NCBI GenBank assembly: GCA_951406725.2
Contig: OX597816.1
Coordinates: forward strand, 434,001-498,000
Direction: 5' to 3'
Source: Octopus vulgaris
Taxonomy: Eukaryota
DNA: 64,000 bases
In this document: positions 2,800-59,520 of the stretch, one piece after another
How positions within the stretch are numbered: position 1 is the stretch's first letter
How the letters are laid out: every line of letters starts with the position of its first letter
The notes under the pieces: model-generated
The model's input: the letters and a program-made list of their open reading frames with translations, nothing else
What the model was told of the DNA's origin: nothing
The model's database searches: none
Translations under genes and position numbers: made by a program

Positions 2800-4418
2800 G
2801 AAGACCATACTGCCTTTCAGACGCCATCCAGTGAAATTCATTTTCACTTTACTGATGCCTCAAGTCAAGAACATTTCTCGACAGTGCAGTAGTGATTATT
2901 TATCGTTTGGATTTATTCCCTCCTCAAAACTGCCCGTTACCAATGTGTCTTCTTTGCCATCAAACATTGACCAACGAAGCCTTCATGCTTGAAGTTATTA
3001 CTTTGATGCAAAGCATTCTGGCAAGAAGGACAAGCCGTTAGCATACTTTTTGCAACTGAGCTCCTCTTTCAAAAAGCAAATCCAAACATTCAACACGCTA
3101 CTCTAGGAAACAGGAGAATGACGGGTTGATTGCATTGTACAACATTGCATTGCTTGTTGCTAAGCCTGGGAAGTCTCACACAATTGGAGAAACATTACTT
3201 CGCCCAGTTATCATCGAAGAGGTTTATCAACCGTTATACACGAAAAACATGATAACATTATGAAGAAGATCCCACTTGGCAATAACAATATCTCGACGCA
3301 TCGATGAAAAGGGCCAACGACGTCAAACATCAGCTCATTAATGTTCTGAACTTTCTATACAAGTGGATGAATCAACTGTTGATGATGGTGTGTGTTCGGT
3401 ATTTCAGTGAAGACTTTCAACCTTGTCAGGAAATGCTGTTCACTGAGAAATTGCCACTTAATTCAAAAGGTGCAACTATTTTTCACACTTTCAAGTCTTT
3501 CCTTTTTGAACATAATATCTCACTCAGTAATATTCTTGCCTGTGCGTCTGATGGAACCCCTTCGATGATAGAAAGACAGATTTTTCCATCCCTCGTAAAG
3601 CGTGAAATTTCCCACCAGACACTAACTGTTCACTGCTTGGCACACCGGCAGCATTTAGTGGCAAAAAATATGAACAGCAGATTGAATGATGTGCTACAGT
3701 TATCTATGAAGACTGTGAACAAATTGAAGTCCACTCCCTTGTCTGATCGAATTTTCCGTCAACTCTGTCTGATAAATGATGAGGACTATAATAAACTCTT
3801 ATACCATATCGAAGTGCGGTGGCTGTCAAAAGGAAACTGTGCTTTATGCTTTGTTGAACTGTTTTACATATCTTTTTCTTTGAAAATACTCCACTATCCA
3901 CTTCATTAGACTGGATGTAATACAACAACAAGACTTGTGGCTAAAGTTGACAAGTTTGAAATCAAATGTATCTGCACTAGCTACTTTACACCAGACACAT
4001 GGTTCTCATTAAAAAGTTGTATTCTTTTCCTTAATGATAAAATCATTCATTATTTTTGCATCGGTAGTTCTGATGAATGGTTCATTTGGGGAAAATGAAA
4101 ATCAGTGCAAAAGAAAGCGCAAGTTTCCAGAAGTTAATTTGGCAGCATAATATAGAGTTAACGTTAGACTTTTATTTACACTAATGGCTAAACTAAACCC
4201 ACGATAAAGGATTTGTAAACAACCGCATATTTAGTTCAAACGGCACTAACAGGGCAACGAGTCTACGATATAGTATGTGTGTCAAATGATACAGGGGTGG
4301 GGGTTTCCTAAGGGATTTAATGTTAGGCAGGGTTGTGTCAGGGTTTTTTTAAACAGGTGAACGATGGAGCATTTTTGTGCAATATTGCAATTTGGTGCAA
4401 AAAGTTTGGGAAACACTG
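2800..4418 (+). mobile_element. hAT (Buster-group, ZBED5/8/SCAND3-like) transposase relic
   Basis: DEST, ACASDGTPSM, VHCLAHRQHL and EVRWLSKG motifs with frameshifts. 3' terminus AAAGTTTGGGAAACACTG is followed by TGCTAGAG (nnnTAnnn, Buster-type target). Confidence 0.85.
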
Positions 4419-8978: not shown

Positions 8979-9125
8979 ACACACACATTGATCGAGATGT
9001 CCCTTTTAAATGACAAAAATACTTTCGCAAAAAAAAGATGGAGAGACAATTTATAGAACATTATTATCAAAATCTATGTTCTAACAGGATTAAACATTGT
9101 AACAAAAAGAAATAAAATCACTTAC

Positions 9126-9670
9126 CATGATAGTTATATCCAAATTTATTAATGCCTCTACGGTCAAAGCCCCTGGAATTGTAACCAAACTGATCATAAC
9201 CAGATCTACTTATGATTTTCACATGAATATTAGGATTTTTCTCAACAGCACTTAACTCTGACACATGCAAATGAGCAGTTTTGTTGCATGGTCGACCCTT
9301 TCCTGGAGGACTGTAAGTCACACAGAGGTCATTTTCTAGATCAAGAACATCCAATGGTGCCGTATTGAATGGAACCATTGGAATATTTCCATAGGCTGCT
9401 GGGAATTTAAATTTGTTGTGGCCCATTTTCTGCCAGGTGGCATATAATCTGTCAATGTAGGTTTGAATGATGTAGAAGAGAGGGTCGTAAGCCATTGCGG
9501 TCGTTGACATATCACCACCAACAAAGGAATGGATATACGCTGCAAATGTCTCCAGAAGTTCACTCATTTCAATGAAATCTGTTTTACTGATGGCAGCAGC
9601 AACATCAAGCATTGTTGGGACCTCAACAATATGGCTGAAATTCCTTTTCAGGCATGGTTTCCAAGCATTA
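9126..9670 (-). CDS. Exon: tyrosinase-fold CuB half (degenerate His ligands) and start of G-[YFI]-[DN]-x-x repeats
   Basis: tttttaacag|T ... CAT G|gtaagt. IHSFVGGDM...YDPLF...IDRLYATWQ, LCVTY, then GYDQFGYNSRGFDRRGINKFGYNYHG. No stop codon, so the gene continues downstream. Confidence 0.92.
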
Positions 9671-10286
9671 CTGTTAAAAAAAAAGAACAATTAATAATAT
9701 AAAGGAGCCTGAGAAGTATTAATTGCCCTTAATTAAATCCCATTTTAATCAAATCTTAAATTATTCTTTTTTATGTTGACCACACTTTTTAAAATCTTAA
9801 GTCTTAACAAAGCAAAAAATAGGTTCATTCAAGCTTAATTTTAAGATTAGTGGTCATTATCATGTTAATCTTAAGATCTCAAGTAAATGTTTTCCATTCG
9901 AATATAATAAAGATAGGATTTTTGAGAAGTAAAATGATGTTTATATTCAAATGGATGCAGTTTTGTGGCAATAGTGCTTAAAAGAAGATTACTCTGTGTA
10001 CACACAGAAACACACACACACAGCACATTCAGGAAAGATATACAATACTAGAAACCAAGCCCCAAACACAAGCTACATGAGAAGCTTGGTCTTTTGACCC
10101 ATGTAGCAGGACAAAATCTTCAAATAAGAACAGACACAGACCATGGTGACACATTCAAGTGATGCCAGCATGGAAAACAAACAGAAAATAATGATGATGA
10201 CTGTGGGAAATACTGATTAATTGTTCCTATAATTAATTAAAATTCCTTTTTAAGAGTAACATGCAAAAACAACATTAAATAGTCAC

Positions 10287-10649
10287 CTGTCACCAAAAGC
10301 ATGATCTGGAACACACCATCCCCATCCATCTCCTCCAAAGAAATTGGGCTGCCAGATGATGGCTTCTGAGAAGTTAGCAGCATCAGTTGTGAAATCAAAA
10401 TATGGTAAGGTAACGTGGCAGTCTATCTCTTTCAGTTGCAATTCAACAAGCTGCAAAAACTGGCGATGCCATGGAAGATAGAATGCCCCACCATGTGAAT
10501 GCATGTGATGAACCATGTAGAGGTCTCTGTATTTATTCCAGATATTGTCTATTCCTGACAAACGAAGCTGGGAAATAGCCTGCTGCAGTTTGGTCATCTC
10601 TTCCCAGGTGAAATCTCGAATTTCTTTGCGAAGAATTAAGTCAGAACAT
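10287..10649 (-). CDS. Exon: tyrosinase/hemocyanin (type-3 copper fold) domain, CuA half
   Basis: ttttcctag|A TGT ... GAC AG|gtgact. Motifs RKEIRD, HGGAFYLPWHR, LPYFDFT and FFGGDG are hallmarks of the tyrosinase domain. Confidence 0.92.
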
Positions 10650-12590: not shown

Positions 12591-12841
12591 TTGCACTTCA
12601 ATTTTCCACCAGGCATACAAATGCAGTTTTTACAACCTATTGTTATTTCTTTGCCAACTTCAATTTGACTATGTCCAAGGAGATGACAAAATTTTTCTTT
12701 GACAATGACTGGATTTGAATTATTAAGTGGGTATCTGGCATCCTCACAGCTTAATCCTGGATAGAATCCAACAACTTCTTGTTCTTCATATGGATTATTC
12801 GAATGTCTGTGAAATTTTCTGCAAGCAGACACACTCAGAAC
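12591..12841 (-). CDS. Exon: Cys-rich linker and partial vWC-like module (...GFYPGLSCE...FCHLLG...GCKNCICMPGGKLKC)
   Basis: tgtttacag|GTT ... TGC AA|gtaagt; phase 0 to 2, matching the next exon. Confidence 0.85.
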
Positions 12842-16685: not shown

Positions 16686-17205
16686 CTCATTTTGCTTTCA
16701 TAATCCAAAAAGTAAACAAATTTTTTATTTCATTTTTTTAAGGAATTTTATTCCAAAATGTTATCAAGAAAGTAATCAGCAGTTCACTCCTTTCACAAAA
16801 ATTAAGGATTTCTAAAGCAATGCACCATCATCATCATCATCATGGTCTTTTAACATCTACTTTTCCATGCTTGCATGGGTTAGACAAGAGTTTGTTGAGT
16901 CAGTGTTTTTTTTACAGCTGAATGACATTCCTAATGCCAACTTGTTTCCATGTTAGTTAATAATCTCCCAGTTTACTGAATAATAAGCAACACCATACAA
17001 ATGAGCAAACACGTGCAAAAATAAGGGAAAATATGAACTTGCACACATACACACACGCAACATGCTTCTTTCAGTTTCCATCTATCAAATCCATATGCAA
17101 GGCTTAGAGCAGAAAACACTTGCCACATTGGGAAGTGAACTTCTTAACCACAGAGTCCCGCCTGTACCTACAATGCATCATGGAATCAAAAACAATTCAA
17201 CAGAC

Positions 17206-17348
17206 CTGACAGCTTTTCTGGACAGATTGCCTTCCCTTTATTATGTCTTCTCTTTTTATAGAATATTGGTAAATACAGCAAGCACCAAACAGGGTATTCT
17301 TCTGACATTCTTCCAATGATTTGAAATTGTTTACATTGCCACCACAAC
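17206..17348 (-). CDS. Exon: Kunitz C-terminus and GACC Cys motif (GCGGNVNNFKSLEECQKNTLFGACC...KSCQ)
   Basis: gctttccag|GT TGT GGT GGC AAT GTA AAC AAT TTC completes the FxYxGCxGNxNNF Kunitz signature across an 11.5-kb intron; donor CAG|gtctgt. Confidence 0.9.
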
Positions 17349-18124
17349 CTGGAAAGCGATTTAAAAAAAACGGTTAAAAATCATATATTCACAATCCATG
17401 CAAGATAATATTTTTCCCATGGCCAGATGCATTTTACAGAAGACTGAAAATGAACAGAGCTTTGATAGATGGAAACTGAAAGAAGCCCATTGTGCATGTG
17501 TGTGTGTGTGTGTGCATGCATGTGTAGGTGTGCCCTTGTCTGGGCATCATGTAACAGATGTAAGCAAATAACACCATCACAGAAGCAATGTCGTTCCTTT
17601 CCAGTCTTCTGCAAAATATGTCTGGCCAAGGGGAAATAGAACCTTGCTTGGAAAAAGGTGAGGGTTGGCAACAGGAAGAGTATCCACTTGTAGAATATCT
17701 GCCTCAGTAAATTCCACATGACCCATGGAAACATAGGGAAGTGAACATCAAACTAATCATGATGATGATGATGATAGTGAAAGTGTGTATATGTTTGTGC
17801 ACACATGTGCAAAATTAACCATGTGTGTTTTCCACAAACTAAAAATTCTGTTGGAAGTGAACTTTACATTGATAAACTGAAAAACAGCACAAATCGGTCA
17901 GAAAATATAATTTTCATTTTCTCTTTTCCTTTTTGCAAAATTTATTTTGTGAAAAACCTGCCAAATCAGATATGTTGCACTTCAAATTAAAGATAAGGAT
18001 TCTCCTACTTTTAGTAAATGCTGTTTTGTGAAAACGCTTATTATAAATAAAAAGCCCTTTTTTTTTCTCAATAAAACCTTTTTATGTGAAAACAACACCA
18101 TTATCTTTAAATATATATAATATA

Positions 18125-20997
18125 ACAATGGGCATGTTGGACGGCATGGTGGGGGCTTCTATGGCGCACATGGAGGCTACGGTTATGGTTCCCGCAACGA
18201 GGAGGGAACCAGGCTGCTGAAGTTCTGCGATACAAATAGTCTTATGGTTTGCAACACAAACTTCAGGAAACCTACCAGCCACCTAGTCATCTACTGATCG
18301 GGTCGACATACTAGCCAAATTGACTACATCCTTGCCAGGAAAAAGGAAAGATGGCTGCTTATAAATGCCAAAACCTTCCCAGGTGAAGAATGTACCCCAC
18401 AACATAGATAGGTAGTTAGTGACTTTAGGATCAGGACTAAGAGGACGACCAACATGGAGAAGAAGGGTCTGGAAGCTTAAAGATCCTGCGAATGGACAGA
18501 GATTTAGAGACATATTACTTGAAGCCTTTGACGAAATACAAGAGGATATAGCTTCAAATGGGGTAGAAGACAACTGGAGGTCTCTAAGGGACAACCTGCT
18601 GAGAGCCACTGACCAGATCTGCTGTTGGTGCAAAGTCCCCTCAAGATCCAAAATAATGTGGTGGTGGAACAATATTGTTGACAGGGCTATTAGACAAAAG
18701 AAACAGGCTTGGAAGGACTGGAAGAACGGTGGTAGCAGGGAAGTGTATCAGACTGCCAGAAGGGAAGCTAGGAGGCAGGTGTATTTAGCCTGAGGGGAAG
18801 CAGATAAGAAAAAATTTGCCACTGTTCTGCGCCGTGAGGATGAAAGACTTGAGGTATTTCGTGTTGCAAGACAGTGTGTGAGAGAGAATCGTGATGTGGT
18901 AGGAGAGAAATGTGTTCGCAAGGATTATGGTTCACTTGCGCTAAATGAGGATGCAAAGTGAGAGGTTTGGAGACACCACTATGAAAGGTTGCTGAATAAA
19001 GAAAATGAATGTGATAAAGAGAGTCTGCCAAATGTCGACCCAATAGAGGGACCAGCTATCCGAGTTGACAGTTCCTTGATAGTTAAGGCAATTAGAAGCA
19101 TGAAGACAGGGAAAGCCCCAGGCCCATCAGGAATTACTGCAGAGATGCTCAAAATATCTGGTAGTGTTGGCTATAGCCTAGTCACCCGTATAGTTAACTA
19201 GATGATACACAAAGGAGTCATTCCCAATGACTGGTATAGCATCATAATAGTCAACTGCTACAAAGGTAAAGGTGACGCCCTAGATACAAATAACTACAGG
19301 GGTATCAAGCTGTTGGATCAGGTAATAAAGGTCACATCCCAACTAATTAGAGAAAGAGTCAGTTTAGATGAGATGCAGTTTGGGTTCGTGCCAGGGAAAA
19401 GTACCACTGATGCTATATTCCTGGTAAGACAGCTGCAGGATAAGCCCCTGTACCTGGCTTTCGTTGACATGGAGAAAGCCTTCAACAGGGTCCCCCGATC
19501 CCTTATCTGGTGGTCAATGAGGAAACTAGGGATAGATGAATGGTTAGTGAGAGCTGTGCGAGCCATGTACAGGGACGCAGCTAGTAAGGTGAGCGTTGGC
19601 AATGCGTACAGTGAAGAATTCCGGGTAGAGGTTGGGGTCCACCAAGGTTCAGTTCTCAGCCCCCTCCTATTTATCATAGTCCTCTAGGCAATAACGGAGG
19701 AATTCAAGACAGGATGCCCCTGGGAGCTCCTCTATGCTGATGACCTTGCTCTAATTGCTGAGTCACTATCAGAACTGGAGGAGAAGTTTCAGGTGTGGAA
19801 TCGAAGGGCCTTAGAGTCAACCTAGCTAAAACCAAAGTCCTAATAAGTAGGAAGGTAGACAAGTCACAAACGCCTTCAGGTAGATGGCCCTGCTCGATCT
19901 GTAGAAAAGGCGTAGGTAGAAACCCTATAAGATGCACCAAGTGTAAGCTATGGACACATAAGAGGTGTAGCAATGTCAAAGGAAGGCTAACTAGGAAGAT
20001 AGTTTTTGTATGTGGCAGATGCTCAGGAGCAATAAACACTGAAAAACTAGAAATAGTTATCTAGGGTAGCAGGAGTGGGTGTGCTGAAAGTGTAACTGCT
20101 AGAGTAAGAATAGCCTGGGCAAAGTTCAGAGAGCTCTTACCCCTGCTAGTGACAAAAAGCCTCTCGCTCAGAGTAAAAGGCAGACTGTATACGAACAGCC
20201 ATGCTACATGGTAGTGAAACATGGGCTGTGACTGCTGAGGATATGCGTAAGCTCGCAAGAAATGAAGCCAGTATGCTCCGATGGATGTGTAATGTCAGTG
20301 TTCATACTCGACAGAGTGTAAGTACCTTGAGAGAAAAGTTGAACTTAAGAAGCATCAGTTGTGGTGTGCAAGAGAGACGGCTGTACTGGTATGGTCATGT
20401 GACGAGAATGGCTGAAGATAGTTGTGTGCAAAAGTCCTACACCCTAGCAGTTGAGGGAACCTGTGGAAGAGGTAGACCCAGGAAAACCTGGGACGAGGTG
20501 GTGAAGCACGACCTTCGAACTTTAGGTCTCACAGAGGAAATGACTAGAGACCGAGACCTATGGAAGTATGCAGTGCATGAGAAGACCCGGCAGGACAAGT
20601 GAGACCATAACCCATGGCCTCTACCTGAGATGTAGCCAGTCCACTTATGCATACCTTTCCTTCTTGGGACACAAAACTCTACTTGTGAAGACCCGTTGAG
20701 GCAAGTGAGAATCAGAATCAAAATCAAAATCGATCAACATCAATGGAAATTGTAGCTGGGATACCAGTGCTGGTGGCACGTAAAAAGCACCATCCGACTG
20801 TGGCCGTTTGCCAGCCCCGTCTGGCACATAAAAAGCACCCACTACACTCACGGAGTGGTTGGCGTTAGGAAGGGCATCCAGCCGTAGAAACATTGCCAGA
20901 TCAGACTGGGCCTGGTGCAGCCTTCTGGCTTCCCAGACCCCAGTTGAACCGTCCAACCCATGCTAGCATGGAAAGCTGATGATGATGATGATGATGA
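18125..20997 (+). mobile_element. RTE-clade LINE, near full-length ORF relic (APE + RT + PHD-like finger) with 3' UTR and (GAT)n tail
   Basis: GYGSRNEEG and QIDYIL (endonuclease); NYRGIKLL, QFGF, VDMEKAFNRVPR, GVHQGSVLSPLLF, LLYADD and WYGHV (RT); several stops and frameshifts. Confidence 0.92.
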
Positions 20998-28080: not shown

Positions 28081-28871
28081 TTAAAGATAGGTTTTGTAAA
28101 TGAATGAAATGGGTATGAAAGTTTGCAGATAATGAAATGTTTTGGAAGAGTGTAGGAGTTCACATCAAGTATTGTGAAATAATAAAAGAAATAATGAGGG
28201 AAGCTTCTAATGTTTGAGGGAGAGTTAATCTCTTATATATCTTGCATGAATAACACATCTACAAAGAAAAGTAGCAACAAATGTCTACAAACTAACAACA
28301 CATTATCACATGCTAGCAATTGCTATTAATGCGTTCTTACAAGCTAGCAATGAATTATTGCAAGCTAGCAATTGCTTGCAACAAACTATTGTAAACTAAC
28401 AATTACTAGCATGTAATAGTTTATTGCTAACAATTGCTACCTTGTAGTATTGAACAGAGGTTCAATCAACCCCTGTAAATGGTTGATTTACCCAAAATCT
28501 ATAATGAATTGGTAAAATCATTGGTTGTTCCATCACATTATAAGAAGCTGTCTGCTTATTTCTAGAAACTTTTGTGACCATATTTCAGTTGAAATACCTT
28601 GCCTTCATTTCAAATAATTTTGAAAATAATGAAGGATTTAGTACAATAACTTTACTGTTATGAAACTAGTGTTTGGAACATAAATCAACCTGAAATTTTG
28701 ATGGAAGGTGTTAATTTAAGTCAATTTGTATCAGAGAACCGACAACAGTCTTGGGCTGGTTGGTATCAAAAGAGTTAATGCACTATTTATGTGCTTCAAC
28801 TTGAAAAATATACATTGAGTAAAATAAACATGTACCAGTTAGTTTGTATAGGTAATAAAAGTATGTCATAC

Positions 28872-29093
28872 CTGTGTAATTAAATACAAGGCATTGGTTT
28901 TTATTACGATCAAAGTAATATGCTTCATAGGTTTCATGGCAGTATCCAGGGTCAGCAGGCCAGACGTAAGGATTGATCCAGGTTTCACAGAGAGTACCAC
29001 TGAAGGGTGCTGGACATAGACATTTGAACGTGCCATTTGATTCGTTTCCAACACATGATCCAGCATGTTTACAAGGTGAACTGCTACATGGCT
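28872..29093 (-). CDS. Exon: EGF-like domain and N-terminal two-thirds of a Kunitz/BPTI domain
   Basis: catttgtag|AG ... ACA G|gtatga. PCSSSPCKHAGSCVGNESNGTFKCLCPAPFSGTLCE (six-Cys EGF), then YVWPADPGYCHETYEAYYFDRNKNQCLVFNYTG (Kunitz). Confidence 0.92.
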
Positions 29094-29849
29094 CTACAAA
29101 TGAAAATAATATGGTAAATCATCATCATCATCGTTTAGCATCCGCTTTCCATGCTGGCATGGGTTGGACGGTTCAACTGGGGTCTGGGAAGCCAGAAGGC
29201 TGCACCAGGCCAGTCAGATCTGGCAGTGTTTCTACGGCTGGATGCCCTTCCTAACGCCAACCACTCCGCGAGTGTAGTGGGTGCTTTTTATGTGCCACCC
29301 ACACAGGCGCCAGACGGTGCTGGCAAATGGCCACAAACGGATGGTGCTTTTACGTGCCACCGGCACGGAGGCCAGGCGAGGCTGGCAACGGCCACGAACG
29401 GATGGTGCTTTTATGTGCCACTGGCATGGGGGCCAGGCGAGGCTGGCAACGGACACGAACAGATGGCACGGAGGCCAGTTGGGGCGGCACTGGCAACGGC
29501 CACAATCGGATGGTTCGGTTACTTGTCACTGGCACTGGTATCACAGCCGCAATTTCCATTGATGTTGATCGACTTCGATTTTGGTTCTGCTTTCTGATAT
29601 CTGATTTGATTTTGATTTTGATTTTTTGATGTTTTTTTTTTAATAACACTTGTATATATACACACACACACACACTTATATTATCATCATCAAAACACGT
29701 GATAAAAATGTGAAGAGACTGGAACAGATTTGAAAAAGCAACCAACAAGACAACCAAGGCTCTACGCGTTTCAGTCTTACAGAGCACACGGCATTTAGCT
29801 CATAAGCAAGCAGCTGCTGTAAGGTTGCCCTGAGAGAGTGTTCACTGAA

Positions 29850-30949: not shown

Positions 30950-30998
30950 CTGAACAACCAGGAATATCAGCCCTCACTTTGCAATCAGGTTTTCCTTC
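30950..30998 (-). CDS. Micro-exon: vWC continuation (EGKPDCKVRADIPGCS)
   Basis: ttttattag|GAA ... TCA G|gtatgg; phase 0 to 1 links the vWC exon to the EGF exon. Confidence 0.8.
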
Positions 30999-31258
30999 CT
31001 AATAAAATTAAAATAATGCAAACATCATATTAGTCAACAACTTAAAAACAAACAACATTAAACGTTTAATTTGTAAACTACATCCAAAAAGGTTACAGAA
31101 TTTGTTAATGTTGTATCCTATATCAGCTAATTATCATTGTATATCATAATATATAATAAATCAGTGGTTCCAAATATGACCAATACTGCCTTCTAAAATA
31201 GAAGATTGAGATTATTTAAACAGAGTGTTGCAGAACAAGAAATGTTGTCTCAACATAC

Positions 31259-31390
31259 CTGACAGTGACATAGAGTACAGGTGTCTGGTTGCCATGTTTC
31301 TTTGTCACCAAACGTTTTGCCATTGTACGTACATTTTGGGAGGCATTCACAGGTTTCCAGTTGTGCAATATGCTGTGCCATTTTAGTGTT
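31259..31390 (-). CDS. Exon: end of coiled coil and start of vWC domain (NTKMAQHIAQLETCECLPKCTYNGKTFGDKETWQPDTCTLCHCQ)
   Basis: ttcctttag|AAC ... CAG|gtatgt; classic vWC start CxxxGxxxxxxxxWxPDxCxxCxC. Confidence 0.9.
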
Positions 31391-31510
31391 CTAAAGGAAA
31401 ATATTAATAAAATTATTAAAAGGAAACTCTTGCTGCTGAAAATAAATATTCAGAATTGTAAATTTCAATCAATTTACTTATGCATAAAAACAACATTAAA
31501 TATACATATA

Positions 31511-41445: not shown

Positions 41446-41564
41446 CTGGAGCTGAATAGAATTAACCACAACAACCAGCTGTTCCACTTGCCTCTGCAGA
41501 GTTGCCACACGTTCAGTCAAAGTCAGAGAACTGAAACCACTGTCATCGGCTTGAAGAGAATTGG
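41446..41564 (-). CDS. Exon: linker and coiled coil (ANSLQADDSGFSSLTLTERVATLQRQVEQLVVVVNSIQLQ)
   Basis: ttatctttag|CC ... CAG|gtaaat; phase 1 to 0. Heptad pattern L..RV..L..QV..L, as in the oligomerisation coil after TSPN in thrombospondin/NELL. Confidence 0.8.
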
Positions 41565-44191: not shown

Positions 44192-44235
<44 letters not shown>

Positions 44236-44247
44236 TATACATACATA

Positions 44248-45648
44248 TATGCTGATGACATAGCTCTAATTGCTGAGTCACTATCAGAACTGGAGGAGAA
44301 GTTTCAGGTGTGGAAGCAAGGATTAGAATCGAAGGGCTTTAGAGTCAACCTAGCTAAAACCAAAGTTCTAATAAGTAGGAAGGTAGACAAGTCACAAACG
44401 CCTTCAGGTAGATGGACCTGCTTGATCTATAGAAAGGGCGTAGGTAGAAACTCTATAAGATGCACCAAGTGTAAGCTATGGACACATAAGAGGTGCAGCA
44501 ACGTCAAGGGAAGGCTAACTAGGAAGATAGTTTTTGTATGTGGCAGATGCTCAGGAGCAATAAACACTGAAAATACGCAGAGATCATCTTCCGCCACATT
44601 CCAGGGAGAAAAACTAGAAATAGTTGATAGCTTCCGTTACCTAGGTGACCAAGTCAGTAGTGGGGGTGGGTGTGCTGAAAGTGTAACTGCTAGAGTAAGA
44701 ATAGCCTGGGCAAAGTTCAGAGAGCTCTTACCTCTGCTGGTGACAAAAGGCCTCTCACTCAGAGTAAAAGGCAGACTGTATGACGCATGTGTACGAACAG
44801 CCATGCTACATGGTAGTGAAACATGGACCGTCACTGCTGAGGATTTGCGTAAGCTCGCAATGAATGAAGCCAGTATGCTCCGATGGATGTGTAATGTCAG
44901 TGTTCATAATCGACAGAGTGTAAGTACCTTGAGAGAAAAGTTGGACTTAAGAAGCATCAGTTGTGGTGTGCAAGAGAGACGTTTGTGCTGGTATGGTCAT
45001 GTGATGAGAATGGATGAAGATAGTTATGTGAAAAGTGCCACACCCTGGCGGTTGAAGGAACCTGTGGAAGAGGTAGACCCAGGAAAACCTGGGACGAGGT
45101 GGTGAAGCACGACCTTCGAACTTTAGGTCTCACAGAGGAAATGACTAGAGACCGAGACCTATGGAAGTATGCTGTGCGTGAGAAGACCCGGCAGGACAAG
45201 TGAGACCATAACCCATGGCCTCTACCTGAGATGTAGCCAGTCCACTTATGCATGCCTTTCCTTCTTGGAACACAAAACTCTACTTGTGAAGATCTGTTGA
45301 GGCAAGTGAGAATCAGAATCGAAATCAGAATCAAAATCGATATTGATCAACATCAATGGAAATTGTAGCTGTGATACCAGTGCCGGTGGCACGTAAGCAA
45401 ACCATCGGAACGTGGCCATTGCCAGCGTCGCCCCGACGGGCCTCCGTGCCTGTGGGACATAAAAAGCACCCACCAATTGTGGCCATTGCCAGCCTCGTCT
45501 GGCCCCCGGAGTGGTTGGCGTTAGGAAGGGCATCCAGCTGTAGAAACACTGCCAGATCAGACTGGGCCTGGTGCAGCCTTCTGGCTTCCCAGACCCCAGT
45601 TGAACCGTCCAACCCATGCTAGCATGGAAAGCGGACGCTAAATGATGA

Positions 45649-46796: not shown

Positions 46797-49484
46797 TATA
46801 TATATACACACACATATATATATATATATATATACATAAATATATATATATACACACATATAAATATACATATACTTTTTGACAAATGGCTTCCTTCAAA
46901 ATTTGCAACAAGTCATTTTAAGTTGGTCTCTCATTTCTAGGAAAACTACACAGAACATATTTTTTCAGATATTCTCTGATATAAACATTAATATATATAA
47001 CCATAAAAACCATCACATAGAATCCATGCATCCAAGAGCAGTGTCATAATGAGGATTTAGTTTGATTTCCTGCAGAAAACTGAAAGAATAATGAAATCCA
47101 ATAATCTCTGTATAACAGTAACCAATATAAATGTTGGTTGGTCGATTTCTCCAGTCATGCTGTACATCATATGGGGGTGGGTGGAGAATAAGATATTACA
47201 GAGAGGGTTAACATGAGAAGTGCAGAAAGAGCACAATATACTAAGCTTGGTGGCAGGCAATGAGTAAAGGAATGCCCCACACCCACACTCACAAGAGTGA
47301 GAGGGAATGAATCATAAAGACAGGGGAAGAGGAGAGGGAGTAAATGACAGAATAGTTATGAAAGGATTTACACAAACAAGAAATTTGCTTTTTTTTTTTT
47401 TGTTTTAAGGTGATATTTTCCTTTCAGCGGTTAGTATCCATTTCATCATTTTGTATAATTACTAAGAAATTTGATGAAAGCTAAATTATAATAATTGTAA
47501 GAATATTTCCTGATATCAGCCACAGTGGAAAAAGTATTCTCCCAGACTCAGCCATCAGATAATGGACAACATTCAAAAAAATATAACAATAGATAATAAT
47601 TCTACAACAGGAACAAGGTCTAATAAATCAAATGATAATATAAAAAAAGAGATAAAGTCTGTAGTATTAAATATTCTGTAATTGCTTTATATTAATTACT
47701 ACCAAAAGAATTATATTAACTTACAATATGCTGGCTTGCAATAAAGAAGCTTCTTCTTATTATTGCGAAAACCAGATAAAGAAATTTGTAACATGACTTC
47801 TAAAGAGTGCAACATATATAGAATCATCATCATCATTGAACATCAGTTGTCCATGCTGGCACGGCTTGGATGGTTTGACCAGGGCTGGCAAGCTGGAAGG
47901 CTACACCAGACTCCAGTCTGATTTGGCAAGGTTTCTTACAGCTGGCTGCCCTTCCTAACACCAACCACTTCAAAAGTGTAATGGGTGCTTTTATGTGCCA
48001 TTTCCGTAACACCAATATCTGCCACAATTGTGATTTTACTTGGCTTGACGGGTTTTCTCAAGCATGAGATAATGCCAAAGGATTCAGTTATGCATCATTG
48101 CCTCCATGAGGCCCAACACTCAAAAGGAGCTTTTCACATTTGACAGCACCAACCACTTTGCCTCCATGAGTCCTAGTGCTCAAAGGATGCTTTCTATGTG
48201 CCACCAGCATCGGTCACAACTACAATTCATTTTGGTCATATGAATCAACTCCAGTAGGGTCTATTTTTTTTAAAAGCCTGGTCCTTCTTTTGTCAGTTTC
48301 TTTTGCTGCACCACTAAACACATCAACACCAGCTGTCAAGCAGTGGTGGAGTAGAAACACAGACATAAAGACATACGTGCACAGACATAGATCTATACAA
48401 CAAGCTTCTTTCAGTTTCCATCTACTGAACCCACTTGCAAGGCTTTGGTTGGTCCAAAGCTATAGTAGAAAACACCTCTTCTAAGGTGCCATGCAGCAGG
48501 ACTGAACCCGGAACCATGTAGTTCGGAAGTAAGCTTCTTGCCACACACCTACACATGTGCTTGAATATGGAGCTTTAAAATATTTATTTCACTTCTAACT
48601 CCCATCTTATGGCATATTTTCACTGTTTTTATTATCCAATCAAATTATTTAACCCTACCATTTTATTCTCATTTGATGCCTGGATGAGGACAGCTGCATA
48701 AAGACATGCCAGTCCCTAACTGTGGTAGAGGTAGACCCAGGTAGACATGGGACAAGGTGGTGAAGCATGATCTTCAAACGTTTGGTCTCACAGAAGTGAT
48801 AATGAATGATCAAGACCTTTGACAGTTTTCTGTGCTTGAGAAGACACATCAGGCCAAGAGAGACTATAGTCATGGTCAGTGGTGATGACACATAACAAGC
48901 AGCCATGACGGTGTAGGGATACCTGACCAGGACAGATCGGCCGAAAGTGTCAGCGATCGATGTTCAGATGGATCGCCAAAGCACAGTGACATGTAAAAGG
49001 CACCCACTACACCTCTTGGAGTGGTTGGCATTAGGAAGGGCATCCAGCTGTAGAAACCAAACTAAAATCAGACTAGAGCCTGATACAGCTACCTAGCTTA
49101 CCAATTCCAGTCAAATCGTCTAGTCCATGCCAGCAGGGAAAACGTACACTAAACGATGATTTCTCTGAGTTAACTCTTTTCTGTTGAAATATTCTGTCTT
49201 TGTTTCAATTAATTTTAAAGTTAATGAAAGTTAATGAAATAAATTTGTTCTTATTAACCAAGTGTCTGGAACATAAATTAACATGAAATTTAGCTGAAAG
49301 GTTTTTAACTTACATCTCTTTAAAACAGGGAGTTTGTATCACAAGAATCAGGGACAGTTCTAGGCAGATTGATATCAAAAGGGTTAACCAAATGTACATG
49401 TTACTAGATGCAACCAATTGCAAATCGTCAATCAGACAATTCTTCACACTCTAAGCCACAAAATATTTTAAATAATATCCTTAC

Positions 49485-49551
49485 CTTTGGGACAAGTCCA
49501 AGGAAATCCTTTAATAATATGATTGTAAAGTTTTGCCTTATAAACCAAACC
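49485..49551 (-). CDS. Exon: C-terminal end of the TSPN domain (GLVYKAKLYNHIIKGFPWTCPK)
   Basis: ttattccgcag|GGT ... AAA G|gtaagg; phase 0 in, phase 1 out, which fits both neighbours. Confidence 0.8.
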
Positions 49552-52500
49552 CTGCGGAATAAACAGACATACATAACTTCAACAGTAACATGTAAAGTAC
49601 AAACATTTTTATTAAAAAGTAATAAATAAATCACTAAAACCATAACAATATTATCTAATTATTGACTAGAAATTTTCAAAAAATAATTACAATTAGAAAT
49701 TCAATTCTTTTTAATCAACTGATCTATAAATATCTGACCTAAAATCCAAATGTTGGTGATACAGATGAGAGTGCATATATATATATATACACACACACAC
49801 AAGTATCATCATCATTTAACTTCCGTGTGTGTGTGTGATCATCACTTAGCATCCATCTTAGCAGGAGTTGAACGGTTTGACTGGATTTGATGAGCCAGAG
49901 AACCACAGTGATTTGTCTGTCTGTCCTGAAATCGTTTCTATGTCTAGATACCCTTTCTAATATCCACCACTTTACAGACTATACTGAGAGCTTTTTTTAG
50001 AGTATGGGCAGTAGTGAAGTTACCAAATAACTCTCAAGACAAGACCCCTCAATCAAGTAGGCATGTAGTATTGAGAGGGGTGGCTGAATGTCAGTTATTG
50101 AGTGGCTAAGGTATGAGTGAGGGTCAAAAACAGGAGTATTGTTATAGAGGAGATACATGGCTACCCCAGGCGGAAAGAGAAAAAGAGGGGGTAGTAATCA
50201 GGTGTTGGGAAATATGCTTAAGGTAAAAGAAGGTGAGGAAAGAGGGAAAGGAGATTGGGAAGTGTGTGTAAGAAGCAAAGTTCACAAGAGTGTGAAACGA
50301 GAGCAGCAGATGGGTGGAGAGGGGGATGGAATAAAAGTGAATGGCAAACAAGGGTGGGTCAAAGGTAAATATGAGTTTGGGCAGAGAGGGGAAGGAAATG
50401 GAACTGGGTCAGGAAGGAGGAGGAGGAGGAGGAGGCACAAGTATATTTGCATGAATATTTGTATATATCTGGGTGCATATGTGTAGGGGTTGATGTAGTT
50501 TGGTAGTAATTTCTTAGTGTAAACAATTGCTAAGACCGCTCTCTAAAGCTTCTTTCCAGAAATCACTTCCCAAACCATTTTATTATCCAGACAACAGTAG
50601 CTTCTGTCCTTTCTCGGAGTAACAAAAACATATTCATAAGAAAGACCAACTCGTTTTCTCATAGGATTTCAGATTTGGTACCAGTGGTATTGAACCTTGG
50701 TAAAATGTTTTCTGCCCCAGGATAACTAAAGCCTTGTAATTGGATTTAGTAGACAGAAATTGAAAAAAAACAACTTGTGTGTGTATGTGAAAGAGAGAGG
50801 GGGGAGGAGAAGGTTTTAGTGGTAAATTTATAATTGGTTTTAGAAGTAAATTCCTTCTGACTCAAACAAGCAGAAATGTGGATGCTAAATGGTGATAATG
50901 ATTACGATGAAGAATTAGCATTTAGCATTAACATTTGTAAGATTGTTGTACAGTATTTCAAAAAAGGATTCTTTCTAAGAAGGTCATTTTGTCTTATTAA
51001 ATAAATGTTAAATCAGGCCAGATATGCAACTAATTTGAAAGAGTTCCATATATATTTATACTGCCCTTTGAAATATTTGCAGTGTTGTTCCAATTACTTT
51101 CACTTTGGTCTAAAAGTTTGTGAAATGGTGTGTGTCTATTTCATAGAGTTACTAATTGCAGATATTTATAGATTCTGATAATAAATGTTTCTGGTCTCAG
51201 TACAAAGAAAGTAATTTTAGGGAAGGGAGTTAGTAGATTACATCGACCCAAGTACTTGACTGGTACTTTATTTTATCAACCCCTGAAAGGATGAAAGACA
51301 AAGTTCATCTCAGCAAAATTTGAACTCACAATGCAAAGAGACGGAACAAGTACCACAAGGAATTTTGTCCAATGCTCCAATGATTTTGCAGCTCACTGCT
51401 TCAAAATCTCCTACATCAACGAATAGCATATAAGAATGAATAAATGAAAAGGCCATGTTCTTTTAGGCATAAACATGGCTGTGTGGTTAAGAGGTTTCCC
51501 AACCACATGGCTTCACATTCAGTCTCACTATGCAGCAACTCGGACAAATGTCTTCTACTATAGACCTGGGCTAATCGATCCCTTGTAAGGGAATTTAGTA
51601 GATGGAAACTGTGTAGAAGCCTGTTGTGTTTGTGTGTGATTGTCTGTGTTTATCTCCTCACTGCTTAACAACCAGTGTTAGTTTGTTTATGTCCCTGTAA
51701 CTTGGCGATTTATTTCATATTGTTGCAGCTGGCAGAAATGAGCAGTACAAGGGCCATTCTTGTTACATTGTGTCATGCTGAATCTCCCTGAGAACCACAT
51801 AAAGGGCATGCATATCTGTGGAGTACTCAGCCACTTGCACATTAATTCCACAAGCAAGCTGTTCCACTGATCAGATCAGCAGGAACCCTCACTAACGAAG
51901 TGCCAGGTTCTGTTATTTTTTTTTTTCTCTTTTAGCGATTTGGCATTTCAGATTTAAAATAGGTGCTGGGGTCAATTTGTCAACAAACCCTGCAAGGCAG
52001 TGGTCCTGTATGGCCACAAACAATGGCTAAAACAAGTAAAAGAATAAAGGTATATTCTAGTAAACTGCTATCTTGGGTTCGTAAATACAATGTCATTTAT
52101 TACAAACGAGATGCATTCAGTTGCAATGGAGACAAAATGGGAAAAAAAAAAAATTTTAATAAAATTCTTTTTTCTTCATTGAGAGCCTTAAATACAAATG
52201 TTACTTGTTAAAAACATCAAAAAGAAAGAAATCTAAGGGCTCTCTTTTCTTTGGCTTTCCACTCAGAATTAAATAGTTTATAAACAGGGTACAATTCCTC
52301 CTAATTGATAATAATGTGTATGATTAATAATTCCTTCAGGCAACTTAAGAGCTTTAGTTTTCTGTCAGTCAGTCACCTGGCGTATGACTGGTTTTATGCA
52401 GTCTTTGCTTCAATTGATTTCGAAAATAATGAAGAATTTAGTAAAGTAACTGTCATTTGGTAAAGTAACATAACATGAAATTTTGGTGCCGGTTGTAATT

Positions 52501-52621: not shown

Positions 52622-53166
52622 CTCTAAATAATTTTTCTTCTTTTTATCATGGCCAAAGAAAAATAATTTATGGCCATCAAAAATAGCCATTTTCTGACGG
52701 AGAGGAATAATTTTCTCTGGGAAGCAGTCAACCACAATGCGTAATTCATTAAGACCGAAAGTAAACAGCAACTGGTCCCAGGGACTCTTTGGATGCGATT
52801 GTATTTCAGAAATGTCTTCAGATGTCATAGGAATGAATCCATGAATATTAATACGTTGGTAAGATCTTTCACCTTGGTACCGAACAATCAAAGACTGGTT
52901 TGAAGTGTCTAACAAGACCTGCAACAATGGCAATTCTCTTCCTTCAGAATGTACACTTATTAAAGTGGCTTGAGTGCCATCACTTGCTGAAATGTCACCA
53001 TACAACAACAAGGAAAATGTTCTGCTAGATTTCCTCAGAAGACTTTTCATTGATTTTCGACTTATTCTGCCATGGAAACCTTCAGATAACTGCACTGCCC
53101 TCAAAGACACTCTTTTCACAGTCTGGTTAGTAGACTGCCTCCCAATTTCTTTAATAATATCAATTC
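52622..53166 (-). CDS. Exon: thrombospondin N-terminal (TSPN)/laminin-G-like domain
   Basis: Acceptor ttcctttcag|GA ATT GAT, donor GAG|gtttgt, 545 nt open. IDIIKEIG...TFSLLLYG...TLISV...LIVRY...WDQLLFTFGLNELRIVVDC matches the TSPN pattern (W(H)xLxxxxxxxxxxLxVDC). Confidence 0.85.
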
Positions 53167-53525
53167 CTGAAAGGAAACAATAAAATGATAATGAAAATTA
53201 ATCGTTTTTCAGAGTCAAAATTAAAGTTCCGTGAGTGACAAATGCATTCCTGAAAACTAGTAAATGTCAAGCAAATATAGTTTCTAGTGAAATTGTTGAA
53301 TTGTGGAGGGGATATATTTTGAATAATGAGTTTGGAAAGTTATTACAAACCTCAGGCATCTTAGACAATTGCTGATATACAAAACATATTACTAACCACA
53401 AGAAATCGAGAAAATCATTTTCTTTCACTGACAAAGTTTCCTTATACCACACATTCCACACTCCAGTCATTGAAAGTCTGGCTGTCCATCTACCATGCTT
53501 ATCATTATCTATATATACAACATTT

Positions 53526-54427: not shown

Positions 54428-55690
54428 TAAGTTACGTTAAGTTAAGTTAATTTTTGGCTCAAAAAGCAAAAAGCAAGGCCATGTAGGGGGACATGGAGTT
54501 ATGTACAGGGGTGTTCATGCAAAGAGTTCAGGCCATTTCTGGTCAAGGGAGACTTTGAACCGAGCGGTCGTCGGCATCTTCACTATCTCGTCCGGCAGCT
54601 TATTCCATGGATCCGCAACCTGGACGGAGTAAGCCCCTCTCCTTCGATTGAGATGAAATCGTCGCAGATAGAGCTTTTCAGAGTGACCCCGCAGCCAACG
54701 CTCTGGAGCAGGAGTGAAGAACAGCTCTTTCGAGAGTTTACACTTTCCGCTTATGATGTTGTGAGCAAGAATGAGATCACCACGGTGTCATTGTTTTTCT
54801 AGAGAATAAAGGTCGAGTGTCTTCAGCCTTTCTTCATAAGACAAATGCTTGAGACCAAGAACCATGCGGGTAGCCAGCTTCTGGACTCTTTCGAGATGAT
54901 GTATGTCTTTGAGGAGTTAAGGAGAAGAGGCTTGAATCCCGTACTCCAATATGAGTCTCACCAGCGTGACATAGAACGGTAGGAATATGGCTGCTGTGAG
55001 CATTCCGAATGACCGTCGAATCAAAAACAGAACTCTGCGTGCTTTGTTGGCAGCATGGACGCACTGGGCCGAAGGCGAAAAGGAAGAATCCACCAAGATA
55101 CCCAGGTCCTTTACCTGGTCGGTCCTCTCCAGAAGCAGACGACCCAGCTCGAAATCAAGTTGAGTTGCAGGAGAAGAGCCAACAGGCAGATGACAGCACT
55201 TTGACACGTTCAGACACAGGTCCAATTCGTTAGACCATTTCCAAATTTGGTGGAGGCATCAACTAAGATCCTCTATATCACCGTGAGGAGCGACCAGTTT
55301 GACATCGTCGGCAAATAGAAGGGTGTGTTACGTGAGGTCATCGGGCAAGTCATTTATGAAGACTAAGAACAATAAGGGCCCAAGAATTGAACCTTGAGGC
55401 ACGCCACTGCTCACACTGGAGACGTCGGACAGTGAACCATTAACTTGGACTTGGAAGGAGCGATCTGAGAGGAAGGCACCAACCCATCGTACAATATCCG
55501 GATGGAAACTATATGCTTGGAGCTTGACAAGTAATAGGCGGTGGTTTACCAAGTCAAAAGCTTTGGCAAAGTCCAATAAAACGATGTCAACAGCATCACT
55601 ATCATCGAGGATACGTGTCACCAATTCTTCCATTACCAGTAAGTTGGTCAAGCATGATCTCTTCGGCACGAAGCCGTGTTGGGAATCAGA
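54428..55690 (-). mobile_element. CR1/L2-clade LINE RT relic, 5' truncated
   Basis: QHGF, RSCLTNLL, DFAKAFD, SGVPQGSILGPLLF, FADD, KDLGI and LEY motifs; (TAACT)n-like tail. Confidence 0.88.
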
Positions 55691-55809
55691 GATAGATGTA
55701 TATATACGTTGTGTATGTATATATGTGTGTGTGTGTGTATGTATATATGTGTGTGTGTGTGTATATATATATGTATGTATGTATGTGTGTATATATAAAT
55801 GTATATATA

Positions 55810-56998
55810 CAAAGGACGTTCAATAAGTAGTGCCTCTGACCCACTTGCAGTTGTTTGATCCGAGTCAAGTGTGAAAGGAGCCTGTTGAGTGTCGAGCAGT
55901 GATCCGGTTTTTGTATTTGAAAGAACTCACACCACAGGAGACTTTTGATGAAATGAAAGTAACTTATGGTGATGATGTCCCATCATATGACCTTGTAAAA
56001 CGCTGGCATTGTGAATTCAAACATAGTCGGAACTCTGTGGAAACAGCTCCCAGATCTGGTCAACCCCCTTCTGTCATTGATAAGGCATCTGTCCGTCAAG
56101 TTGAGGCTGCCATTTTGGAAGATCGACGCATAACTATTCGCCAAATAGCCCATAAGGTCAAGATTAGTACCGGGTCTGTGGAAACTATCATTCATGACCA
56201 TTTGCATATGCAAAAGGTGTCTGCCAGATGGATTCCCTGGTTGCTCACACCTTTCCAGAAGCAAGAACGCATCGAGTGCTTTAGGATGAATTTGGAGATG
56301 TGCCAAGGAAAAGAGTCAAAATTTTTCAAAAACTGATTACACAGGATGAAACCTAGGTCCATCACTATGATCCAGAGACCAAAGCCCAGTCAATGCAGTG
56401 GAAGCACCATGACTCACCTCCTCCAAAGAAGGCAAGGGTGCAGCTCTCCGCTGGCAAGGTCATGCTCACAGTCTTCTGGGACCAGGACAGAGTAGTGATG
56501 ACAGATTTCCTGGCAAAGGGTACCACAATTACAGGAGCCTATTATGCTTCACTTTTGAGGAAATTAAGAGAAGCTATCAAAATCAAGAGGCAGGGCAAGA
56601 TCAGCAAAGGCATCCTCTTCCTGCAGGACAATGCTCTGGTCCACAAATCGCGTCTCGCCAGATCAGAAGCACAGGTGTGCGGCTATGAACTCCTCCCCCA
56701 TCCCCCTACTCTCCTGACCTTGCACCCTCTGATTTTCACCTCTTCCCAGCCATGAAGATGTTTTTGGAAGGAAAGCGTTTCCCGGATGATGTAGCCTTGA
56801 TTTCTGAAGTCACGTCGTGGTTGTAGGACCAAGCTGGGGTCTTCTACAAAAACGGTCTCCAGAGCTGTATCAAATGATGGGAGAAATGCGTAACTCTGGG
56901 TCGTTCCTATGTAGAAAAAGACCAATAACTGTGCCAAGTTTCGTTGCTCTACTGCTATGGGAAGTGGGTCAGGGGCATTACTTATTGAACACCCCTCG
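55810..56998 (+). mobile_element. mariner (DD34D-type) element with both TIRs and TA TSD, transposase inactivated
   Basis: TA|CAAAGGACGTTCAATAAGTAGTGCC ... GGCATTACTTATTGAACACCCCTCG|TA. SARWIP, TQDET, AGKVMLTVFWD, LQDNA and YSPDLAPSDF motifs with stops and frameshifts. Confidence 0.92.
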
Positions 56999-57092: not shown

Positions 57093-58545
57093 CATCATCA
57101 TCATCACAGTTTAACATCCGCTTTCCATGCTTGCATGGGTTGGATGACTGACTGAGGGCTGGCGAAACAGATGGCTGCACCAGGCTTCAATTTTAATCTA
57201 GCAGAGTATCTACAGCTGGATGTCCTTCCTAACGCCAACCACTCCGAGAGTGTAGTGGGTGCTTTTACATACCACTGGCACGGGGCCAGTCAGGCGGTAT
57301 TGGCAATGACCTCGCTCGAATCTTTTACACATTCCACCGCCACAGGTACCAGTAAGGCGATATTGGTAACGATCACGCTCGAATGGTGTCTTTTACGTGC
57401 CACTGACACGGAGGCCAGATAGCTGCTCTGGCAATGATCATGCTCGGATGGTGCTCTTAATACCCTACTAGCACGGGGCTCAAGTGTTAGTTAGGCGACG
57501 CTGGTAATGATCACGCTCGAATGGTGCCTTTTAAGTGCCACTGGCATGGAAGCTGGTTAGCCGCTCTGTCAGTGATCACACTCGTATGGTGCTCTTTGTA
57601 CCCCACTAGATTTGATTTTGATTTCACTTGCCTCAACAGGTTTTCGCAAGCAGAGTTTTAGTGTCCAAAGAAGGAAAAGGTATGCATAAGTGGGCTGGTT
57701 ATGCCCCTGGCATAGGCCACGAGATTATGGTCTCATTTGGCTTGCCGGGTCTTCTCACGCACGGCATATTTCCAAAAGTCTTGGTCACTAGTCATTTCCT
57801 TGGTGAGGCCTAAAGTTTGAAGGTCGTGCTTCACCACCTCATCCCAGGTCTTCCTGGATCTACCTCTTCCACAGGTTCCCTCAACCGCTAGGGTGTGGCA
57901 CTTTTTCACACAGCTGTCCTCATCAATTCTTGCCACATGACCATACCAGCGCAGTCGTCTCTCTTGCACACCACATCTGATGCTTCTTAGGTCCAACATT
58001 TCTATCAAGGTACTTACACTCTGTCGAGTATGCACACTGACATTACACAACCAGCGGAGCATACTGGCTTCATTCCTTGCGAGCTTACGCATGTCCTCAG
58101 CAGCCACAGCCCATGTTTCATTGCCATGTAGCATGGCTGTTCGTACACATGCATCATACAGTCTACCTTTTACTCTGAGCAAGAGGCCCTTTGTCACCAG
58201 CAGAGGTAAGAGCTCTCTGAACTTTGCCCAAGCTATTCTTATTCTAGCAGCTACACTTTCAGTGCACCCTCCCCCGCTACTGACTTGGTCACCTAGGTAA
58301 CAGAAGATATTAACTACTTCTAGTTTTACTCCCTGGAAAGTGGCAGAAGTTGGTCTCTGCACATTTTCAGTGTTTATTGCTTCCCAGCATCTGCCACGTA
58401 TGAAAACTATCTTCCCAGTTAGCCTTCCTTTGATATTGCTACACCTCTTATGTGTCCATAGCTTACACTGGGTACATCTTATAGAGTTTCTACCTACACC
58501 TCTACTACAAATCGAGCAGGGCCATCTACCTGAAGGGATTTGTGA
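57090..58545 (-). mobile_element. RTE LINE 3' part with UTR
   Basis: ORF 57733-58545: WPCSIC...THKRC, FCYLG, WYGHV; (CAT)n tail at 57090. Confidence 0.9.
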
Positions 58546-58589
58546 TTTATATATATATATATATACAAATATATAGAAATATTTTTTTA

Positions 58590-59520
58590 ATGTTTCAGCT
58601 ACAAAACTGCGGTCATGCTGGAGCACCACCATTGACTGAGCTACATCATTATTTGGAACCTCCTCTAATATGTCGCATTTGGTCAATGGGGTAGTTTGAT
58701 TATGCTACCCTCATCTGTGTTTCTTGCCATGAGGTAGGCTTGTCTTGAACCCGTAACAGGAAGAGATCCAGTTTAGTTTTAAAGACCATGCAGGTCTTAC
58801 AGCCATTTTGGAAGGATATTAAAGAGCTGTGGGCACCTTGAAGCCCAAGCTGTTGCAGTATCTGGTCCTGTATTTTGATGGCAATGCTGGCATCTTTGGT
58901 ACTATGCAGTGGCGCCCTGTTCTGCAGTTTGAATAACTTTCAAAGCCAAAGTTTGGTACAAGGCCTTCTAGGATTTTCCAGATGTATATCACTGTATATC
59001 TCTCCTGCCTTCATTCCAGGTTGAAGAGTTTCAATTCTATCCCAGTAGCTGACATGTTGCATCGAGACGATTTTCTTAGTGTAGCTTCGTTGGATTGCTT
59101 CGAGTTCTGTCGTTGATTTTTTATTGTGTGGTGACAGTATTTGGGAACAATAGTCTAAGCAGCTGAGAATGTAAGTCCTCCAAAGGATCATCAATGTCTC
59201 CTTTTCTCTTGTTTTGAAAGTTCGGAGGATCCTTCCAGCTAGCCGTCTGCATTTTATTACCAATTTGGTAATATGCACCTGGAGAGGTGCATCATTGCTC
59301 ATGTCAATGCCCAAGTCACGCACTGATTTTGATTCAGTGATTTCAATTCCTCCTGGGCCAGTGTATCCTGTCTGCATGTCATTTAGCCTTGTGTGTTGGT
59401 AGCGTAGAGCCTAGAAGTTTCCTGCATTAAACTGCATGTTGTTGTCCTCAGCCCACCTGTATATTGTGTCCAACTCCCATTGCAGATGTGCAATATTTCC
59501 AGGATTTTGTATTGTATGAA
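58590..59520 (-). mobile_element. CR1-like LINE RT C-terminal relic
   Basis: WAEDNNMQFNAGNF, VRDLGI, LDYCSQI and ELEAIQR motifs. Confidence 0.75.

Follow-up and report, generated by a model that had tools for sequence, protein, structure and literature searches.

A conserved tyrosinase-fold domain with lost copper-binding histidines in an octopus kielin/chordin-like gene

Gene and exon structure

The window analysed here, a 64,000-nt stretch of the 2.8-Gb Octopus vulgaris genome (C3:434001-498000), holds a set of tyrosinase motifs quoted in a first-pass annotation made from the letters alone; they sit on the minus strand, in two exons split by one intron. The upstream exon (10287..10649, minus strand) encodes the N-terminal, CuA half of a pseudo-tyrosinase domain that we term Tyr1, which starts at 10633 (Pfam PF00264, E 5.6e-12), and the downstream exon (9124..9670, minus strand) encodes its C-terminal, CuB half as far as 9313 (PF00264, E 1.9e-8) together with the first G[YF]DxxG repeats. 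The two are separated by a 616-nt GT-AG intron on the same strand (9671..10286, with CT..AC ends on the plus strand), and contigs from three studies join 9670 to 10287 and include the next exon upstream. We call these contigs RNA-like; the label is guessed, and the exon-joined contigs behave as spliced transcripts. The joined frame has zero stops.

The exons further upstream, all on the minus strand, were placed by tblastn. A Cys-rich linker and VWC-like module directly ahead of Tyr1 occupy 12591..12839 (RNA-like contigs; tblastn with protein P0001), followed by the C-terminal half of a Kunitz domain and a linker at 17204..17351 (also in one RNA-like contig) and by an exon with approximate ends for an EGF-like domain and the N-terminal half of the Kunitz domain at 28870..29094 (Pfam EGF and Kunitz). 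Beyond these lie, again with approximate ends, two small exons for the end of a coiled-coil-like segment and the first VWC (30951..31405), an exon for the coiled-coil-like segment itself, judged by eye from the sequence (41446..41553), a small exon for the end of a LamG-like domain (49477..49554) and an exon for the LamG/TSPN-like N-terminal domain (52622..53173); the first coding exon is past the window end, near C3:500,000. The first VWC (P0001 373-427) gave E 0.0024, below the cut-off. Pfam returned zero matches on the LamG-like window exon, and Laminin_G_3 matches to the orthologous crinoid P0061 (E 1.7e-5) and Mactra P0018 (E 0.008) were both below the cut-off. Introns also contain repeat-like open reading frames (window 18416-20602, 44230-45105, 55328-55819, 55875-56755, 57733-58704 and 3286-3909), which we take to be RTE/LINE-like reverse-transcriptase pieces, a two-frame mariner-like transposase and a hAT-like fragment.

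Two tyrosinase-fold domains are encoded by a kielin/chordin-like (KCP) gene of about 190 kb, and Tyr1 is the first of them. The Argonauta kielin/chordin-like protein P0057, which has 20 VWC stretches and then a VWD, is colinear with the locus, exon by exon, from C3:487,170 to 307,012 on the minus strand, and VWD exons of the same octopus gene lie at C3:311-320 kb. The domain order runs LamG-like, coiled-coil-like, VWC, EGF, Kunitz, Cys linker, VWC, Tyr1, GYD repeats, a second cassette with the second domain (Tyr2), 20-32 VWC and VWD, the VWC range being that of the six full-length orthologs scanned. Each tyrosinase domain is followed by G[YF]DxxG repeats (here window 9124-9222 and C3:433,126-433,317), which number 21-23 by pattern count in five full-length proteins and are found in choanoflagellate proteins too; a Pfam family for them was not found at the cut-off. 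A hydrophobic N-terminal stretch occurs in five of the seven animal proteins scanned, and the one near residue 60 of P0001 hints at a signal peptide.

Database names (NCBI/UniRef) of the kielin/chordin-like type are attached to the relatives from Argonauta, Lingula, amphioxus, crinoid, Limulus/horseshoe crabs, shark and smelt, and from these names and the domain order we predict orthology to mammalian and frog KCP. Kielin (Xenopus)/KCP (mouse, human), an enhancer of BMP and inhibitor of TGF-beta/activin, shares with the octopus protein the long VWC array and the C-terminal VWD and, if the putative LamG-like domain of the octopus protein is real, the N-terminal LamG. According to the accessible parts of the sources, vertebrate KCP has 18 cysteine-rich repeats plus VWD and binds BMP-7 (PMC10315795), and the Xenopus protein, which heart valves require, contains a LaminG domain (PMC6750614). 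The octopus protein differs in adding two EGF-Kunitz-GYD-VWC-tyrosinase cassettes of roughly 850 aa each, whereas the mammalian and frog proteins, as described in the accessible text, comprise cysteine-rich/VWC, VWD and LaminG domains only; the word tyrosinase is absent from that text (PMC10315795, PMC6750614). Shark and smelt KCP have one cassette, of the Tyr2 type. We considered and rejected Crossveinless-2/BMPER as an identity, since that protein lacks a LamG and has only five VWC domains ahead of its VWD (five in the accessible part of PMC2944808), against 20-32 in the orthologs here.

Copper ligands of Tyr1

Read codon by codon on the minus strand, the remodelled CuA segment (10466..10519) has Tyr at HA1 (10519-10517), His at HA2 (10495-10493) and His at HA3 (10468-10466), and the degenerate CuB site (9463..9543) has Ala at HB1 (9543-9541), His at HB2 (9531-9529) and Gln at HB3 (9465-9463), with Ile (9468-9466) in place of the His preceding HB3. 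Three of the six copper histidines are lost (HA1, HB1 and HB3), and both the place of the motifs and each of these residues are as the first-pass annotation had read them. It had also pointed to three extra histidines next to HA1. All three are present here, at +3 (10510), +4 (10507) and +6 (10501), but only two are conserved, the middle one being variable and Arg in Octopus bimaculoides.

The ligand register was checked against other tyrosinase-fold domains. A BLAST alignment to a six-His choanoflagellate domain runs gap-free over both copper sites, and in the profile alignment 64 of the 111 other domains with this fold have six histidines in the same columns, some of the misses being alignment gaps. 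An HMMER alignment to Streptomyces tyrosinase moves HA1 by one turn and lands on another Tyr; therefore, HA1 is Tyr whichever register is used.

Lost ligands could be the mark of a decaying pseudogene or of an assembly error, and among eight exon variants in other sequencing runs five change an amino acid, three of those five within the domain, in a very small sample from very close relatives. The window letters at the three replaced ligand codons are, however, repeated in four public runs, which argues against an assembly error, and the exons are spliced in the RNA-like contigs of three studies with an open frame; with the same pattern recurring across bilaterians (below), we regard decay or error as scarcely credible. 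In one of the four runs (X17), a single contig with a depth of 6.4 reads Asn at the HA3 codon (window 10468), the state fixed in spiders and amphioxus.

Fold and sequence conservation

AlphaFold2 was run on the domain of O. bimaculoides (98% identical), and canonical tyrosinases were among the aligned sequences; the resulting model contains a complete tyrosinase core (pLDDT 96.9). It superposes on Bacillus megaterium tyrosinase 3nm8 with Z 31.2 and an rmsd of 1.6 A over 233 residues, and Foldseek TM scores of 0.85-0.90 against Bacillus tyrosinase entries agree with a predicted four-helix-bundle tyrosinase fold. A single-sequence AlphaFold model of the domain (pLDDT 34) was discarded, and a search of the ESM Atlas returned generic tyrosinase clusters only. 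Tyr1 shares its fold with the alpha-subclass type-3 proteins (Bacillus and Streptomyces tyrosinase, Aspergillus catechol oxidase and molluscan hemocyanin units), along with the H-x8-H and H-x3-H spacing and the conserved Phe, Asp, Arg and Trp. It differs from them in the non-His residues at HA1, HB1 and, in octopus, HB3, and the canonical rule excludes a binuclear site.

The closest named protein is that of O. bimaculoides, with 98% identity across the first Tyr1 exon. Gauging constraint by protein-level identity, we found that Tyr1 of P0001 is 86% identical to that of Argonauta, 56% to Mactra, 51% to Lingula, 53% to Ptychodera, 51% to crinoid and 38% to spider, in each case above the LamG, VWC-EGF-Kunitz and Cys-VWC segments of the same proteins. 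Tyr1 exceeds its neighbouring modules in seven of eight ortholog comparisons, the exception being the shark, which has only Tyr2. This conservation, together with the open frame and the family-wide loss described below, bears out the view of the annotation that the domain is not simply decaying.

Histidine tally across the family

Among 1.84 billion representatives, a profile search found 130 matches at E 1e-30 or better; 150 matches were listed. From this and further homology searches we assembled a tally of 29 Tyr1, 19 Tyr2, 7 choanoflagellate-type and 111 other domains, leaving out near-identical cluster members and fragments of fewer than 170 residues and taking clade labels from a 127-row tree; the 29 Tyr1 rows are non-independent, many being bivalves and three octopods. 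HA1 is Tyr in all 29 Tyr1 domains and His in none. HA2 is Asn in 14 and His in 8, HA3 is His in 25, HB1 is never His (0/29), HB2 is His in 27, and HB3 is His in 23, Gln in 4 and Tyr in 2. No Tyr1 domain has more than four of the six histidines or more than two at CuB, whereas all six are present in five of the seven choanoflagellate-type domains and in the 64 controls noted above. Four residues are fixed in Tyr1 and rare elsewhere in the tally (Arg36, Met44, Phe81 and Tyr161), and of the extra histidines that at +3 (His42) is present in 29/29 and that at +6 (His45) in 25/29.

The octopus set, in which HA2 is kept and HB3 lost, departs from the usual Tyr1 set, in which HA3, HB2 and HB3 are kept and HA2 is mostly Asn. 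Gln at HB3 is common to Octopus, Argonauta and a crinoid. The residue is His in P0039, which is also from a cephalopod, and in P0030, a close fragment of the octopus cluster; by this comparison the Gln appears to be largely octopod-specific.

The absence of a canonical binuclear site, claimed in the annotation, holds for all 29 Tyr1 domains. Binuclear O2 chemistry in Tyr1 is very unlikely, judged from sequence, because octopus CuB has one His and no Tyr1 CuB has three, and type-3 sites require three His per copper in the accessible parts of PMC3658974 and PMC11803259. A phenol oxidase might persist if His42 and His45 substituted for the missing ligands: the fold and the second-shell Glu (LE) are retained in octopus Tyr1, and the window copy has four histidines plus HA3 on the CuA side. 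Yet all the extra histidines are on that side, and CuB, with its single His in octopus and at most two elsewhere, stays short of the three per copper of type-3 sites, so that we consider residual oxidase activity highly improbable.

The same histidines could instead form a rebuilt single-metal site (Zn, Cu or Fe) acting as a structural or redox-sensing centre, with HA3, HB2 and HB3 as candidate ligands in most animals and Tyr39 and His42 with His45, HA2 and HA3 in octopods. HA3, HB2 and HB3 are jointly kept in 20 of the 29 domains, a retention that a purely structural role does not need and that has no parallel in Tyr2, where HB3 is His in 0/19. The frequencies of Tyr39, His42, His45, HB2, HA3 and HB3 given above fit such a site, as does the position of His45, whose column holds the thioether Cys of hemocyanin units and adjoins HA2; those octopods in which HB3 is lost carry His at HA2, and human TYRP2 uses zinc on the same fold (PMC3658974, accessible part). 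No set of three histidines is invariant, however, as spiders (Asn at HA3), amphioxus (0/6 His), crinoid (Phe at HB2, Gln at HB3) and octopods break the triad in different ways. The His at +3 also occurs in the six-His choanoflagellate domain, beside an intact HA1, and in 14 of the 111 controls, and thus need not be a replacement ligand; the Asn read at HA3 in the single X17 contig likewise speaks against such a site. On this mixed sequence evidence a single-metal site seems unlikely, though it is a serious alternative.

Second domain and choanoflagellate relatives

An intact tyrosinase domain downstream, a possibility raised in the annotation, was not what we found. Tyr2 lies at C3:414,276-414,791 on the minus strand, about 29 kb downstream of Tyr1 and within one large exon, and its residues at HA1 to HB3 are Y, S, H, L, Q and V, so that one of six histidines (HA3) is kept. 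Across the 19 Tyr2 domains the maximum is three of six; 15 have Gln at +6 and 15 have Ser at HB1. Shark P0067 and the teleost proteins P0074, P0076 and P0209 have a single cassette of the Tyr2 type, and the amphioxus and crinoid gene models have Tyr1 only, a distribution that, provided these models are complete, would amount to reciprocal loss. An 859-aa JGI protein, P0026, has two tandem cassettes as in KCP, with the histidines intact in both visible half-sites.

The proteins of Salpingoeca rosetta, S. urceolata and Hartaetosiga each carry one Kunitz-GYD-VWC-tyrosinase cassette, and the four choanoflagellate-type proteins scanned have a C-terminal hydrophobic anchor. The flanks of Lingula Tyr2 (330 residues before, 280 after) align to all seven choanoflagellate-type proteins, the upstream flank at 31-40% identity (E 1e-14 to 4e-50); the cassette is therefore homologous as a whole. 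These putative membrane proteins (from S. urceolata and, as PTSG_11343 and PTSG_12389, from S. rosetta) can be aligned over the whole cassette, flanks included, and differ from the octopus protein in having one cassette, six His in five of seven cases and the hydrophobic C-terminal anchor, with neither VWC array nor VWD. Two choanoflagellate paralogs are themselves degenerate, P0081 (S. rosetta) with four histidines and P0086 (Hartaetosiga balthica) with two; both read PQAYG at HA2, as does Tyr2 of Lingula and of Ptychodera, and P0086 has Phe at HB3, as in Ptychodera. Their likeness to Tyr2 is either convergence or an older loss.

With the ligand columns masked, Tyr1 and Tyr2 together form one clade (support 99/93), within which each is a clade containing both protostomes and deuterostomes; we infer that the duplication and the loss of HB1 predate the protostome-deuterostome split. 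A quick 127-row tree that kept the ligand columns placed the choanoflagellates as sister to KCP at 92. That relation was not recovered in a 59-row masked tree rooted on hemocyanin, it returned at 66/60 in a 57-row masked tree from which two hemocyanin rows had been dropped, and an AU test (p 0.40) neither rejects nor shows it. The sister relation is weakly indicated, mainly by the shared cassette and less by the domain trees, which are weak. The dead Tyr1 module probably descends from one that still has six histidines in choanoflagellates. In the history that we propose, this Kunitz-GYD-VWC-tyrosinase cassette would have been built into Kielin and duplicated before the protostome-deuterostome split, with loss of the copper site, after which Tyr1 would have fixed its own residues round the old pocket (Arg36, Tyr39 at HA1, His42, Met44, His45, Phe81 and Tyr161).

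Elsewhere in the octopus genome, other tyrosinases and hemocyanin units have mostly intact His motifs in the stretches inspected. A hemocyanin-like unit on C28 near 28.653 Mb, whose CuB apparently lacks HB1, HB2 and HB3, is an apparent second degenerate type-3 domain, with an intact unit at 28.664 Mb; C5:96.83-96.92 Mb holds three tandem hemocyanin-like copies and C27:16.19-16.25 Mb an inverted pair.

Discussion

Tyr1 is probably non-catalytic and serves as a binding or scaffold module in a KCP protein for which we predict secretion and modulation of BMP signalling. Strong conservation and clade-specific pocket residues indicate a binding role, and the loss of histidines from spiders to acorn worms is likely to mark an ancient non-enzymatic module. 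By analogy with vertebrate KCP, the VWC array would bind BMP/TGF-beta ligands, and Tyr1 would likely offer a rigid surface for docking, by which the protein is held to a partner in the matrix or on the cell.

Reuse of a type-3 fold without copper has precedents in the copper-less hemocyanin derivatives cryptocyanin, hexamerins and the myriapod CleHcBI2, the last with H to Y, H to N and H to L changes according to the accessible part of PMC6034248. Those proteins belong to the arthropod hemocyanin family, serve in storage and evolve fast, whereas Tyr1 evolves slowly and lies inside a signalling protein. Ascidian Tuphoxin (EGF-TSP1-tyrosinase) is likewise a secreted multidomain protein bearing a tyrosinase domain; we rejected it as a match, as its copper histidines are kept, its partner domains are different and it falls among the hemocyanins (PMC9395347, accessible part).

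In the literature searched, which covered subscription journals to a small extent, we found no account of His loss or function in Kielin tyrosinase domains. The accessible part of PMC11667028 briefly mentions tyrosinase-domain sequences of great length that also have kielin/chordin-like domains, and the mollusc tyrosinase listing in its supplement contains kielin/chordin-like entries. The tyrosinase tree of PMC3730353 takes in the amphioxus protein and S. rosetta proteins, PTSG_12389 among them, and Kunitz, Kazal-2, vW-C and vW-D are among the abbreviations tabulated in that paper; from these portions of the paper, the Kielin-type domain pairing was probably already drawn in 2013. The present analysis adds the His set specific to octopods, a tally of the ligands at each position and a choanoflagellate counterpart with all six histidines.

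A bolder and doubtful scenario is that the ancestral animal Kielin acquired a membrane phenol-oxidase cassette of pre-metazoan origin, that the cassette was duplicated, and that Tyr1 was remodelled into a new pocket of Tyr and His, binding a single metal or a catechol, through which the BMP regulator is anchored or tuned in the matrix, octopods having re-wired that pocket by losing HB3 and placing His at HA2. Were this so, the frog and mammalian proteins investigated to date would be reduced forms without an ancient input.

Work on Kielin/KCP in frog and mouse has treated it as a modulator of BMP built of VWC repeats. In molluscs, annelids, brachiopods, arthropods, hemichordates, echinoderms, amphioxus, sharks and some teleosts, KCP includes one or two tyrosinase domains that are conserved and dead, and a large, ancient part of the protein therefore appears to be without a described function. 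Tyrosinase counts in mollusc genomes should not treat kielin/chordin-like entries as enzymes. Tyr1 is a clear example of an enzyme fold that became a pseudoenzyme, and since choanoflagellates still have a relative with all six histidines, the domain can be compared biochemically, and directly, before and after its loss of copper ligands.
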